Shown here piece after piece: positions 36,434-43,567 of a stretch of 64,000 nucleotides of DNA (the stretch's first letter is position 1; each line of letters starts with the position of its first letter). The notes below the pieces were generated by a model. That model was not told the origin of the DNA. It saw nothing but the letters and a program-made list of their open reading frames with translations, and did not search any database. The DNA comes from Podarcis erhardii (lineage: Eukaryota). The stretch is from NCBI GenBank assembly GCA_964252035.1, contig OZ176208.1; one strand, given 5' to 3'. Both the position numbers and the translations under genes were made by a program.

Positions 36434-37655
36434 AAAGTTCCTAAATGATGTCATAGATAACCAATAGCTGGCTAATGCACAGCCTCATTAAAGGAAGTCC
36501 TGGGAAAACATGTGGGTCCAGCCAGTGCCCTCAGCAACTATACATAGCCATCTGACTACTACACAAATGTGATAAGCATGAAAACAAGCACTTTCTTAAT
36601 TGGAGATGTCCACATGTGATTGATAAATCTGCACTTGCTGCACCTTGAAGTGTGTTCATATGGAACAATGTCTTCTTACATGCGGTCATGCATTTTTAAA
36701 GACATCACCAGAGAAAACAGCAAGAAAGGTGACCAACAACAGAGAGGTTTATTTGGAGTCATTTTCCCCCTAATTATTTTGGGAACAACAACCAAGCTAA
36801 TTTGTAGAATGTTGGATCTGAGCCTAAATACCCGACATGATTAATTACATGTGCTGAGATATGACTACTACTAAATGAGAAGTTTCAAAAGGTGAGGCGA
36901 ATCCTATGCTCGGCACTGGAAAAATCCCTTTTTAAATGCTTTTTTTTCTTCCTCCCCCATATAAAGACCGAGAAGTTCTAAATTAATTAAAATAAGAATG
37001 GAAACTTGCATTTGGCAGAAAGCCCGAAAGCTAGCAACCACTAAACATTCAAAATGGGAAACGATATAATGACTCTAGTTCCATGTTACTTGCTATCTAC
37101 TTATTACCATTAAGCTATAACCCAAATGGAATGAATTAAAAGGCAAAGATGAGCACATAAGGCATTACAAGATTACAAGAAGAAAATGAAGGACTTAAAT
37201 TATGAGCATGTCAAAAATATAACATATGGAGGTTCCTGCAGTATCAGAGCGCACAAGACAATCCTTTTATTTAATGGATTCCCCTCCTCTCTCTAATTAC
37301 TGCAGTGCCTGGTTTTGCATAGAACCTATTGCCATGGTGTGCATTTGTCATTCCTATGGACTTCCCTCCTCTATTCCAGGCAGTAGCTTAGCTTTAAAAA
37401 CAGTTCTATTTGAATCTGTGCTAAATCTTCTAAGATTCATGCCTTAAGTGCCTTTTATAACTGAGAGTGGGGATCAGCTAGGTCAAGTCCATGCAATATA
37501 TTCCTAACACTATTCCTTTTGCAAAGACAGTGGGCATTTTTATAGAGGAAGAAACTTCTGCACTAGTACACGTTATCAGTTTAAAGTCAAGAGTCTGCGT
37601 AAGCAACCACAATTGCACTGACCAGGTCAGTGCATGCCACATAACTCCTGGTTTC

Positions 37656-37994
37656 TGTCGCGTATTCCACGCGGCGCTTTCAGCAGAGACGCTAAGAGTT
37701 CCAGGTTTTCCAGTGCAGTCTTTTTAATGTGAGTTATATACAGGCATTTACAAAAGAAACAGTCCATACAGAGTACTTACAAACGAATACTCTCCACCAC
37801 AGCACCACCACACTACAGCACAACCACCACAGCAACCACCACCCACTGTTAAACAGGCTTTCCTTTTTAAAACAGGTGATAGCCGATCCCACTAATCACA
37901 CTCCTGCTGAGTCACTCTGACTCAGCACTTCACAGAGTATTGCATCATCCTGTTGAAGCCTGCAGACTTATTCAGTATCCTGCAAATCCCAACA
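37656..37994 (-). repeat. Copia 3' LTR
   Basis: Identical to 42080-42418 except C/T at 37816/42240 and 37884/42308. Confidence 0.98.
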
Positions 37995-38004
37995 CTCCTC
38001 CTTA
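37995..38004 (-). promoter_or_regulatory. Polypurine tract
   Basis: TAAGGAGGAG immediately upstream of the 3' LTR TG on the element strand. Confidence 0.85.
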
Positions 38005-41000
38005 AGTCAAAGGCTTGAGACCTAATAATTCTCTTAAGTCTCGAAATTTAGGAGCATCCAAACATTTTGTATACAAATCTGCCACATTACATTTTGTGTT
38101 ACAGTGCTGTACCTTTAACACATTTCTTTCCAAAGCATTTTTCACATTTCCGTATCTTATAGCAATATGTTTACTCTTGCTTTTAAAGTTCTGTTGGTTG
38201 GCAAGCTGTTGTGCAGCCATGTTGTCACTTAGCACAGTGATTGGCATTTCAGAAGGTATTCCAAGTTCCTTTGTTAGACAAGCAAACCACTCTATTTGTG
38301 ATACACATTCGCTTATGGCTGAGTACTCTGCTTCACAAGTACTTGTGGCAACAAATGTTTGTTTCTGGGATTTCCACTGAACCAGGGCATTTCCAATATA
38401 TATGGCATAGCCAGTGGTAGACTTTCCATTTTCTCTGTCCCCCCAGCTGGCATCAGCGTATGCATACACTTGCTGATCATATCCTGTATCCAGCACCAGT
38501 TTGTAATCTTTTGTGCCTTTCAGATACCTTAGGATTCTTTTAAGTGCTACCCAATCTCTCTGAGCCGGGTCTGCACTTCTTTGGCTTAACATGTGCACTG
38601 CCAATGTTATGTCGGGTCTTGTCCAACAACTTAAATATAACAGAGAACCCAACAGAGAATGAAACGCTGTTGCATTCTCACATTTTTGCCCTTCTGGTTC
38701 ATTTTTGTACTGGGTAGTTATGGGAGTGTCAACCTCATTTGCTCTCTCCATTCCATATGTCTTCAGCAACTTTTCAATTTTTTCCTTCTGACTCAGAGAG
38801 TAGACGCCCTCTTCATTTCTCTGAACCTCTACTCCTAAGTAATTCTGAATCTCTCCCAAATACTTCAGTTTGTATTTGTTACCTAGGCTGTTTATAAACC
38901 AAGACACTTGCTTTTGTGCAGTTGTTATTAGACAGATATCGTCAACATACAAAAGTAAATAACAAACACTTCCTTGCACCATTGCTGAATATAAACAGGA
39001 ATCAGCCAGGCTTTGTTTGAATCCCATCTTTTTCAAAGTTGTGTCTATGCATTCATGCCATAGACGTGCACTTTGGTGCAACCCGTATAGTGCCCTTTGC
39101 AGCTTTAACACCATTGCTGTCTTTTTCCAGCTCATAACCAGGTATTTGTTGTAAATACACCTCGGCATCAATAGGAGCATTTAAATATGCTGAGGCAACA
39201 TCAAAATGATTAACTTTTAACCCTCTCAGACTTGCCATTGCTAAAACTGATTTTACTGTTTCAGCCTTTGCTGTTGGGGCAAACACTTCATCATAATGTA
39301 TCATTTTCCTTTGTGTAAAGCCCCTTGCAACCAACCTGGCTTTCCTCTGCCAACTACCATCAGCCAGCTTTTTCACTTTAAAAACCCACTTACAGCTTAT
39401 GGGCTTTTTACCTTCAGGCAATTCTGTAGGTACAAAGACATTGTTGTTTAGCAGAGAGTTATACTATGCCTGCATTGCCTTTAACCACGCCTCTTTCTCT
39501 AGAGTAGGTAACTCTTGCACTTCTTCAAAATTTTCTGGCTCAGTTACACAAACCTGGTTTATGGTGGCTGGGAACCCATAACGGTCTGGAGGTTGACCTT
39601 TATTACTTCTTGCAGACCTCCTTGGTTCATTAATCTCACCCCCTGGGCTACCTTCAGGACTGCTTTTGGGGTGGATTGACTCTGGAGATCTACCTCCTCC
39701 TGTCCCTGTTGCACTTTCTTCTCTCCCCTGCTCCATGCTAGCAGCTGGAGAAAAATGCTCAACCTTTACCTCCTCCCTTTCAGTTTCTCTGGGAGAGCTG
39801 CCAATTCTTAGCTTTGTTTCAACTGCCTTATCAGGTACGCTTGGCAGTAAAACTCTTTCTGGCAGCAGGTTTGCATGTATCTTGGGCCAATTTCTTTGCT
39901 CATTAAAGCTGGCTGATCGACTATAACTCAAAAGATTTTTATCATCTTCAAACCTATAGGCTTTCGTACCACTTTCATACCCAAGAAATAGCAACTGCTG
40001 TGCCCTTTTTCCACCTTTTCTTCGGTTCTTTACAGGTATGTCAACCCATGCCTTTGTCCCAAAGATTCTCAAATGTTGCAAACTGGGACTTTTGTTATAG
40101 AGAATCTTATAGGGTATGTAATCTAGTACCCTTGACCACAAGCGATTCCCAATATAATTTGCGGTCTTAATACTCTCAGCCCAGTATTTAATTGGAAGAT
40201 TTGCATCTGCTAACAATGCTTTCATTTGTGTCTGCAAGACACCTCCCCTACGCTCTGCTACCCTGTTCTCCTGAGGCGTCGCCACATTGGTAAGCCTATG
40301 TTTAATCCCTTGGGAACGCAACCAGTTTCTTAGGGAGCTTGCCATAAACTCTCCTCCCCTGTCTGTCTGAATAGAGCACACCTTTTCGCCAAGTTGCCTT
40401 TCTACCCTTCTTACCCAGAACTTCAAAGTTTGGGCAACGTCAGACTTTTGCTTTAATGGATAGACCCAGCCAAATCTAGAATAGTCATCCACTAGGATCA
40501 AACAGTACTTGTTATGGGAGACACTTGGTGGAAAAGGACCAGTTATATCAGCATGAATCAATTCCAGTGGTTTTTTGGTTTCTCTCTGGCTTGCTCTTGC
40601 TACTGGGCAAGCCCTGCTTTTAACCTCCTTGCAGATATTACAGTCTAAGTAATTATCACAACTTTTAATGTTTTTCATTCCCCCACACAACTCCAATGTT
40701 TTGTTTAGCACCTTATAGCTAGCATGAGCCAGTCGCCTGTGCAGGAGATGAATACACATATCATGGGTTGGGACATTTTGCACATTCGCAACCTTAGACT
40801 CACACTGCAGTACATACATATTAGTTCTAAGGTTAGCATTTGCCAGCACTGCCCCATTTTGCTTTATCTGGCACTGATCTCCCACAAAGTTTACCTCAAA
40901 GCCTGCTTTTGCCAAGTCAGGAATGCTCAGGAGATTGTTTTGCAAACTAGGCACACACAACACATTCCTGAATGTGTGTCCCAGTTGTGGGAACACAACC

Positions 41001-41995
41001 TCCCCCTCACAAACCACATTAGCTTTCTGGCCTGTAGCAAGACTTACGTGTTTTTTGTTTGAAGCCCTAGCATCAGTTAGCAATCCTTTTCTTTTACAAA
41101 AGGTTTGAGAAGCTCCACTGTCCAGAACCCACAGCTCTTCATTTTCTTGACCATCTGCAGACACCCAAGCAGTAGACTCTCTCTGCTGCCTCCTGTGCTT
41201 CTGCTGTTTTTGTTGTTTTCTCGGGCAGTCCCGCAGCAGATGTCCACTGGACTTGCAGCAAAAACACCTTTTTACTTTGTTGACCACCGGCTGGTCTGCA
41301 GCAGCTCCTCCTGGCTGTTTCTCCGGCTCCTGACACCTCTGCTCTTCCCGGCTGTTGTTCCCTCTGGGATGCTCCAACAGCTGGGCTGAGGTCATCTTTC
41401 GCTCTGCACGCCTGTCCTCCTCTGCATACAACCGTCCGGTAACGTATTCCAGAGTCAGCTTATCAGTCTCTACCGACTCAAGGGAATTGACCAGCATATC
41501 ATAGCTGTCATCAAGGGAACTCAGGACTATAAAGACTTTGTCCTCTTCCCCCACAGGCCTCCCTCTTAAGGCTAGCTCCTGGAAACAGCCTGTTAGGAAT
41601 TTTAGGTGGTTCACCAGGGAGTCCCCCGGTTTCTTCCGACACCGGTACAGTCTCCTGGTCAGTGTTATCAGTGAGCCAGCTGTCTCTCGCACATGGACAG
41701 CCTTGAGCGCATTCCACGCCTCACTTACCGTCACCTTATCAGCTACGTAGACTAGCTGGCTGTCGTCCACTCCAAGGATGATCGTAGCCAAAGCTTTCTC
41801 ATCCTTTTCAAGCTGGGCCTCTGCTAGTGCCAGCTTTTCATCGTCGTCCTCATCCTCCTCAGGGGGCTGCGGTGGAGTTTCCACCACCTTCCACAGGCCC
41901 TCACGCTTGAGGAAGTGTTGCATGCGGACCGACCAGATGCTGTAGTTCGTGGCCGTCAGCTTCTCCAGCAACACGCCACTTCTGGACTGCTCCAT
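38002..41995 (-). pseudogene. gag-pol: Copia gag-pol polyprotein (~1330 aa if repaired), one nonsense codon and one frameshift
   Basis: Zinc knuckle CFCCKSSGHLLRDC; protease WVLDSGAS; integrase HRRLAH, CNIC, IHADITGP, VDDYSRF, TDRGGEF, VAER; RT CKWVFK, KARLVARGF, LYGLHQSARLW, YVDD; RNase H YADASW, STCEAEY, SDNMAA, ADLYTK. TAG at 39464-39466; frameshift near the T5 run at 39122-39126. Confidence 0.95.
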
Positions 41996-42048
41996 CCCTG
42001 CAGCTCACCTCCAGCACCCACGGCTAGATAACTGCCACCTGTACTCTT

Positions 42049-42079
42049 GCGCAGCGGAAGCGTGCTGGGCCCATAACCC
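42049..42079 (-). promoter_or_regulatory. Primer-binding site complementary to the 5' half of initiator tRNA-Met
   Basis: Element strand reads GGGTTATGGGCCCAGCACGCTTCCGCTGCGC directly after the 5' LTR; contains the copia-type GGTTATGGGCCCAG core. Confidence 0.93.
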
Positions 42080-42418
42080 TGTCGCGTATTCCACGCGGCG
42101 CTTTCAGCAGAGACGCTAAGAGTTCCAGGTTTTCCAGTGCAGTCTTTTTAATGTGAGTTATATACAGGCATTTACAAAAGAAACAGTCCATACAGAGTAC
42201 TTACAAACGAATACTCTCCACCACAGCACCACCACACTATAGCACAACCACCACAGCAACCACCACCCACTGTTAAACAGGCTTTCCTTTTTAAAACAGG
42301 TGATAGCTGATCCCACTAATCACACTCCTGCTGAGTCACTCTGACTCAGCACTTCACAGAGTATTGCATCATCCTGTTGAAGCCTGCAGACTTATTCAGT
42401 ATCCTGCAAATCCCAACA
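42080..42418 (-). repeat. Copia 5' LTR
   Basis: Paired with 37656-37994; candidate TATA-like TTTTAAAAA and ATTAAA polyadenylation signal on minus. Confidence 0.98.
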
Positions 42419-42626
42419 GTTTCATGGATACAATGGGCTGGTTTGGCTATAATGCTAGACCATAGCTTATAAGATATATTGCTAAACCATAGTTATATGC
42501 ATGAGCTTGCTCCCCTGCCCCCCTTCTCCAGCATGGCCACAAAGAGGGGATTCAAAAGCCAGAAACTGTGGCTCGTTTTAACTCTGGTTTATCAAACCTG
42601 CCAAGATCAGGAGCCACAATTTAATC

Positions 42627-42778
42627 CATAGAGTCACAGAATGATAGAGTTGAAATGGATGGTGAGGATCATCTAGTCCAACTCCCTGCAATACAGGAAT
42701 ATGCAGCTGCCCCATCAGGGGATCAAACCTGTGTCGTTGGTGTTCTCAGCACCATGCTCTAACCAACTAAGCTATACA
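42627..42778 (-). mobile_element. tRNA-derived SINE with CR1-type 3' tail (Squam2-like, tentative)
   Basis: Minus strand TAGCTTAGTTGGTTAGAGCATGGTGCTG..GGTTTGATCCCC, then GGACTAGATGATCC..CAACTCTATCATTCTGTGACTCTATG tail. Confidence 0.7.
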
Positions 42779-43567
42779 GCAACATGGTTAAACTAATGAC
42801 CATTTGTCCTGATTTTAAAACAGTACACTGAGGTTAGCCCCCAATACAACTGCATGCTGTGTGACCACACAAGACAAGGAGTGGGAGGAAGGAAAAACTT
42901 GTTCATATAGCACCAAACTGTGGTTTGGTGTTGCATTCAAATGTCCACAGTGATGCACCTTTGTCCTGTATCCTACTGTACCAATTCAGAACACCAATGA
43001 TCCATAATTTGCATATTTAGGAGGAGGAAAGTGAGCAATCTTCATTTTAACTGCTGCTTCTCCACGTGGCTTAACATAATCAACATATAGAAAAGTTATG
43101 CCTAATCATTACTGGGGAAAATAACAAGTCCTCAAAGCAGAAAGCACCTCATTAAAGAAATACTTTCCGGGGGGTGGGTTGTGCTATCATCTCCATGTAA
43201 GCAAGATCTCCTTCTAACCCAGAACTGGATGGATTGCTTCCACTAGTGTTGTCTCTACCTCTTTTACAACGGTTTGTGGATGATCTATGCAATGTGTCTC
43301 ACTCAAAATACCTTCAATGGTGTTGGGAGTAAAACAACAATTGAGCTACCTGAAACAGTGAGTGGTGATAGACAGAACAGCAACCTGTTTTTCCTCCTTG
43401 CTAATTCCTCCATAACTATTTGTTGATTACTAGATTCTTTACACAGGCTTTACTTCCTTCCTGCTTTTGCTCCAAGATTAGTCAGCATGAGCTAACATGT
43501 GATAGTGTTAACATCTTGGCTCCATGTTGGCCACATGTAAAACCTACACTTAAAATGGCTTTTGTGT

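Follow-up and report, generated by a model that had tools for sequence, protein, structure and literature searches.

A Copia family of Podarcis erhardii with a primer-binding site extended through the D arm of tRNAi-Met to nucleotide 10

Retroviruses (HIV-1, MLV, mouse ETn) prime from the intact 3' CCA end of a tRNA, paired to a primer-binding site (PBS) of 18 nt, and m1A58 serves as their plus-strand stop. The PBS of copia and Ty5 is 13-15 nt long and the copia primer 39 nt, while the site of Candida Tca2 measures about 30 nt. Priming from a half tRNAi-Met is established for Drosophila copia, yeast Ty5 and the plant elements Osser, Bryco and Gymco-II (PMC6317226; PMC10886601, section 3.6; PMC5371799, section 2). 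Candida albicans Tca2/pCal have an extensive internal tRNA-Arg site (PMC4139406), on which passages of PMC7175516 hold nothing further; these elements (gamma LTR) are a precedent for a long PBS directed to an internal tRNA region, with a different tRNA and in a different kingdom. Copia elements are abundant in squamates, where the Mtanga clade dominates, and the main text of the survey that reports this does not mention PBS, primer or tRNA (PMC11889832). Our literature search, which covered search listings and the papers cited here, returned no long tRNAi-Met site, G9 stop or stray primer copies, and a prior description is possible. Within the same search, we did not find the plus-strand strong-stop end or primer inheritance settled for half-tRNA-primed retrotransposons.

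The 64,000-nt stretch of Podarcis erhardii DNA analysed here (the window; GenBank assembly GCA_964252035.1, contig OZ176208.1) contains a Ty1/Copia element whose features are collected in Table 1. Like copia, Ty5, Osser, Bryco and Gymco-II, it has the Copia domain order and, immediately behind the LTR, a site for the tRNAi-Met anticodon arm; unlike in copia and Ty5, this site takes in the entire D arm as well and reaches nt 10, for a length of 30-31 nt. Half-tRNA priming is known, and what appears to be new here is the extension of the site through the D arm to nt 10, family-wide. Compared with retroviruses, the primer would be a 5' half and the barrier to plus-strand synthesis a leaky one.

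Table 1. Features of the Copia element and its primer-binding region, in window positions.
Feature	Position	Strand	Basis
Long primer-binding site; complement of tRNAi-Met nt 10-40, covering D arm, G26 and anticodon arm, with nt 40 a possible spacer	42049..42079	-	sequence, genome comparison
Core half-tRNA site, nt 26-39, common to short-site Copia families	42065..42078	-	genome search
Two bases at the edge of the match, aligned with tRNA U8 (identical) and G9 (different)	42047..42048	-	per-site table
tRNA nt 19, the sole site in nt 10-40 varying among host tRNAi genes; A here	42058..42058	-	gene comparison
LTR box equal to tRNA nt 1-7; possible extra pairing site or poly(A)-linked element (putative function)	42106..42112	-	LTR scan
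Ty1/Copia element, 4.76 kb	37656-42418 (span of LTRs)	-	young, LTRs near-identical
5' LTR, 339 bp	42080..42418	-	direct repeat with 37656-37994, 99% alike
3' LTR	37656..37994	-	direct repeat with 5' LTR
Target-site duplication, 5 bp	42419..42423, twin 37651-37655	.	read from flanks
Polypurine tract adjoining 3' LTR	37995..38003	-	sequence
gag, protease and integrase frame, Copia order, stop-ended	39464..41995	-	ORF and Pfam
Reverse transcriptase region, two frames (39053-39463 and 38002-39180)	38002..39463	-	PF07727 in both pieces

Membership in Ty1/Copia follows from the TG...CA ends of the LTRs, the 5-bp duplication and the polypurine tract, together with the order gag-protease-integrase-RT with RVT_2. 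The two LTRs differ in 3 of 340 alignment columns. The long frame contains PF14223, PF13961, PF22936, PF13976 (below cut-off), PF00665 and PF25597. RVT_2 is split over two frames, so the window copy is broken; PF07727 is present in all homologues among the matches listed in a protein search (at least 120). The same search gave no close named relative, the best matches being only 37% identical. Beyond the 5' LTR, ARAGORN calls a tRNA-Leu(GAG) at 42706-42781 on the minus strand, which is probably a tRNA-derived repeat and not a gene.

A preliminary description of this DNA, made from its letters and the vertebrate tRNA sequence, had proposed that the site is a 31-nt copy of tRNAi-Met nt 10-40 lying against the LTR without a spacer. 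Both the letters and the host gene bear this out: positions 42049-42079 are identical to nt 10-40 of a tRNAi-Met gene of the same genome (ARAGORN tRNA-Met CAT, L018:1492-1563), and they directly adjoin the 5' LTR, which begins TGT at 42080 (gap 0). As that description had stated, the match is broken at nt 9 (T instead of G) and at nt 41; nt 8 (T) matches again. The site beside the LTR pairs with the anticodon arm, not with the 3' CCA end, as in half-tRNAi-Met priming. An exact genome search with the 31-mer gave 33 matches, namely 7 tRNA genes and 26 family copies, and the reversed 31-mer gave none in the same whole-genome exact search, which excludes a chance match. A search with the 3' half of the tRNA identified 10 tRNAi-Met genes among its 27 matches, with A at nt 19 in seven and G in three. 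The G19 genes (L104-L106) lie in the C2 cluster along with a truncated copy that also has G at nt 19 (L222), and their short T-run terminators are placed further downstream.

To sample the family, copies were picked by PBS-independent queries (58 genome places; 40 scored of 66 candidates). We inspected 46 loci; at each of the 15 places left out of the 58, the leader variant is that of a single subtelomeric duplicate. The match started at nt 10 in every inspected copy (46/46), so that the constancy of the edge expected within the family was confirmed. In the per-site table, which has 40 rows after removal of 6 duplicates from the 46, nt 9 was T in 39 copies and G in L048, nt 19 was G in L033 and L038, and the remaining changes were mostly CpG decay or deletions. 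The family site shows no fixed wobble or mismatch across its 31 bases. Seven public runs under six organism labels listed no differences at nt 9 or nt 19; these runs share the same subtelomeric duplicate and are therefore close kin, which makes them no deep test of the boundary. No RNA run was among the listed holders, and one RNA run of a species labelled as a holder yielded 29 reads from 12% of its data, too few to map ends. Two aspects of genomic distribution were also recorded. One decayed family copy has spread to about 20 places (L042-L045, L131-L134 and 15 places near contig ends) by a subtelomeric duplication common to related public runs, and 12 of the 58 family places lie on one 30-Mb contig, C19 of genome G000, that makes up 2% of the genome and might be a sex chromosome or another low-recombination region.

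Among Copia elements of this genome, the long site is the exception, not the rule. The 14-base core (nt 26-39) has 724 genome matches (control, 0), the first 100 of them listed, and 84 of 92 loci read had plain sites of 14-15 nt ending at nt 25-26, from more than 10 families. Blocking by dimethyl-G was considered as a cause of short sites ending at G26 and found no support, human tRNAi-Met carrying only partial m2G26 (PMC7293042). In most short-site families the base after nt 39 is other than C, which indicates that the primer probably ends at nt 39; nt 40 also differs in 16 of 24 stray primer copies (see below). These comparisons favour nt 39 over nt 40 as the primer end, and C40 of the window family may be a one-base spacer. 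The earlier proposal of a ~40-nt tRNA half as primer is indirectly supported as to the 5' half, by strays that reach exactly nt 1, and less well as to an end at nt 40.

We searched the whole genome for tRNAi-Met nt 17-39, allowing one mismatch, and found 93 places. Of these, 57 belong to the family, 10 are genes and 2 look like decayed genes; the other 24 are stray primer copies, at least 18 of them tied to an LTR or gag and 5 or 6 not tied. Nine strays reach nt 1-4 (L139, L140, L143, L144, L190, L213, L215, L216, L218), and in another nine the junction window takes in nt 10 or 11 (L141, L142, L145, L148, L149, L211, L212, L214, L220); windows confined to nt 8-11 occur in L145, L148, L149, L214 and L220. 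The other six comprise four that stop at nt 13-17 and two without a clear junction. In L139 and L140 a complete LTR leads straight into tRNA nt 39 to 1, with no target duplication at those ends, a shape that would be expected of plus-strand strong-stop DNA. The L143 insertion, with nt 1-9 perfect, is also present in a contig of another run. Strays running from a full LTR to exactly nt 1 of the tRNA argue that the primer is a 5' half tRNA, and a physical 5' fragment ending near nt 39 is suggested indirectly, by strays that span nt 1-39 and then continue in the LTR. All strays come from families other than that of the window, and the reverse transcriptases of these elements do copy their primer. 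At L142, L149, L220 and L126 the junctions are inverted (snap-back), the primer copy folding onto the site or LTR of the element itself.

Two of the strays, L211 and L212, are full elements with gag-integrase sequence, from a short-site family; in both, the replacement of the leader sets in at a 5-base match covering nt 11-15. With 17 differences between them, against 8 and 11 to L162 and L199, their sisters with short sites, neither is the nearest copy of the other, and they were apparently converted to the long site separately. Conversion of this kind is the most likely route by which the site of the window family originated.

The genome also holds CCA-primed elements, using the 3' end of tRNAi-Met (L103, L108, L115-L129, L150-L153), with 30-44-base primer copies passing A58. 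A mismatch at A58, the known m1A site, was present in 3 of 16 reading past it, the other positions being fixed by the search pattern; this is a fossil comparable to the one at G9 described below. Copies ending at nt 40 were considered as proof of 3' halves cut at 39/40 and discarded, as that edge had been forced by the first search pattern; a shorter pattern added four CCA-primed copies ending near nt 46, with ends that fit leader microhomology.

The preliminary description had further assigned to m1G9 the role of the plus-strand strong-stop signal. The modification itself is documented for human and mouse, in whose tRNAi-Met m1G9 occurs together with m2G10 and partial m2G26 (PMC7293042; PMC11347157), and G9 is the first N1-methylated base that reverse transcriptase meets in human tRNAi-Met, G26 being only partly m2G (PMC7293042). 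m1G provokes stops or misreads by reverse transcriptases (PMC8062790; PMC11417395). Consistent with misreading, nt 9 was mismatched in 4 of 10 read-through copies compared with 4 of 114 other non-CpG bases (p = 0.001). Without L146, which is decayed, and L216, in which T9 can stem from the LTR, the figures were 2/8 vs 2/90 (p = 0.03); on leaving out L218 as well, from a CCA-primed family, the half-primed clean copies gave 1/7 (p = 0.23). Among the 14 copies that do not run off the primer end, no junction fell at nt 5-7 (p = 0.025, assuming a flat distribution); the windows that define the junctions are broad, and GC-rich microhomology biases them. Nor is G9 an exact stop: nine of the 24 strays, all from other families, reach nt 1-4, and six of eight clean read-throughs read G9 as G. 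We regard G9 as at most a leaky barrier, a reading with moderate support, on the assumption that the host methylates it as human and mouse do.

Whether the primer sequence is inherited bears on how the site is maintained. Retroviruses inherit the sequence of their primer, and Ty1 and Ty3 do not (PMC5371799, section 2; PMC7472051). The G19 in 2 of 40 family copies is a hint of inheritance. Two such changes at one site have a background of 14 in 332 A/T sites (about 4%), and the G9 change of L048 one of 12 in 331 sites; L033 and L038 share subfamily alleles, so their G19 may be one event. None of the 24 strays has G19, and it occurs once, in L196, in a pairing box of the U5 region that involves no primer copying. 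A 5% share of G19 in the primer pool fits the family and stray counts jointly (P = 0.29), whereas a share that simply followed the number of genes, three of them with G19, would make 2/40 far too few (P < 0.001). Shared-allele sites were 0 of 25 in the PBS vs 35 of 640 in gag, by which the PBS is not measurably more uniform; a comparison of its uniformity with that of the flanks was dropped for lack of power. Trees of the 40 copies gave no resolution between L033 and L038 (deletions, long branches), and allele tables were used instead. The suggestion that reverse transcriptase copies the primer up to m1G9 at each cycle is upheld by the 24 strays as regards copying and not supported as regards an exact stop, and renewal at every cycle is weakly suggested by two G19 and one G9 copies among 40.

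Matches beyond the core are found in other families as well. The L050 family, a short-site sister family, keeps a separate box within U5, some 27 nt away from its core site, that matches tRNAi-Met nt 10-25 with G-U wobbles, making a bipartite half-tRNA site (L050, L056, L073, L079, L087, L167, L173, L177, L196, L201), and in 10 of 11 distinct short-site copies among the matches listed it begins at nt 10. It resembles the bipartite sites of Ty1 and Ty3, in which further arms of the tRNA are paired by sequence lying away from the core (PMC5371799, section 2). Unlike Ty1 and Ty3, with their 3'-end primer and no inheritance, the window element has a D-arm match contiguous with its core. As the U5 box begins at nt 10 although primer copying cannot renew it, selection for pairing is a rival explanation to polymerase stalling, and an unpairable G9 would give the same nt-10 edge under selection alone.

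A 7-8-base match to tRNAi-Met nt 1-9 occurs in the 200 LTR bases next to the site in 13 of 26 family representatives, compared with 1.7 expected from shuffles and at most 4 for decoy 9-mers. Besides the window (Table 1), 12 other representatives carry it, for example L157, L187, L090, L219 and L221, and boxes reaching nt 8 fail at nt 9 in 8 of 9 cases. In nine representatives the box lies 41-66 bases from a poly(A)-like signal and may, given this nearness, serve 3' end formation instead. The predicted duplex energy of the long site is -69 kcal/mol vs -28 kcal/mol for the short one, and the longer duplex would bind the primer far more strongly. In folding predictions, a 40-45:64-69 hairpin, which we take to be the RNase P hyperprocessing fold, forms with P 0.94 when nt 1-39 are held unpaired, 0.19 for nt 10-39 and 0.02 for nt 26-39.

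That the long site originated by primer read-through is well supported. Our preferred account, to which we give an even chance of being right, is that the 31-base PBS arose as reverse transcriptase copied into a half-tRNA primer during plus-strand synthesis, stalling leakily at methylated G9. Judging from the site and the stray LTR-plus-tRNA copies, tRNAi-Met nt 1-39 would prime minus-strand DNA. Plus-strand strong-stop DNA would then pass the LTR into the primer, many products ending near nt 10 and many at the 5' end; the products are seen, and their cause is what we infer. In short-site families the overhang would be without a partner and normally lost, sometimes annealing by microhomology and lengthening the site, as is seen in L211, L212 and L054. 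One such event would have been fixed in the window family. There, a product that stops at nt 10 would find a full match and complete its transfer without loss, and some inheritance of primer letters, at least on occasion, is probable. Recombination of DNA with a tRNAi gene or pseudogene, or point mutation, could have supplied the extra 16 bases with no RNA copying, and the ten tRNAi genes and two decayed gene-like copies are available donors. This is very improbable: strays stop at mature nt 1 without gene flank and switch to the LTR past nt 39 or 40, the CCA found in CCA-primed elements is not encoded in the genes, and the perfect, uninterrupted 31-mer contrasts with the wobbles of the U5 box.

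A possible, if somewhat unlikely, alternative is that a single read-through was captured once and then frozen, passed on in the RNA in the manner of Ty1 and maintained because D-arm pairing is selected for, the nt-10 edge then being a pairing limit (the start of the D stem, an unpairable G9) and not a polymerase stop. The non-renewable U5 box with its nt-10 start, the failure of the LTR boxes at nt 9, the chance background of G19 in two related copies and the precedent of Ty1 and Ty3 (PMC5371799, section 2) all speak for such freezing. Yet both non-CpG changes toward tRNA gene letters (G19 and G9) would then need chance, the absence of any fixed wobble or mismatch sets the family site apart from the U5 box, and strays show primer copying in related families. 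At the other extreme stands the model of the preliminary description, in which each cycle rewrites the site in full and m1G9 acts as a precise stop like retroviral m1A58. The sharp family-wide edge, the tight junctions at nt 8-11 in five strays and the fit of the G19 counts to a 5% share of the primer pool agree with it, but we consider it quite unlikely, given that strays, albeit from other families, pass G9, that G19 genes used in proportion would have left more G19 copies, and that short-site families prosper with ends at nt 25-26, where human tRNA has no blocking methyl (PMC7293042). A more far-reaching possibility is that the family has evolved a retrovirus-style renewal from a half tRNA with m1G9 as the main stop, in which the RNA grips nt 1-7 and 10-39 and refolds the tRNA for an RNase P cut at 39/40, the strays being a fossil readout of germ-line tRNA methylation; we hold this to be unlikely.

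One host genome offers here a natural experiment, with short-site families, a fixed long-site family, full elements caught converting and 24 strays that mark where the enzyme stopped. It provides indirect evidence for tRNAi-Met nt 1-39 fragments as primers in a vertebrate germ line, and points to tRNA methyls (G9, A58) as a source of misincorporation marks in genomes. The A19 and G19 tRNA genes form a built-in marker for primer inheritance.
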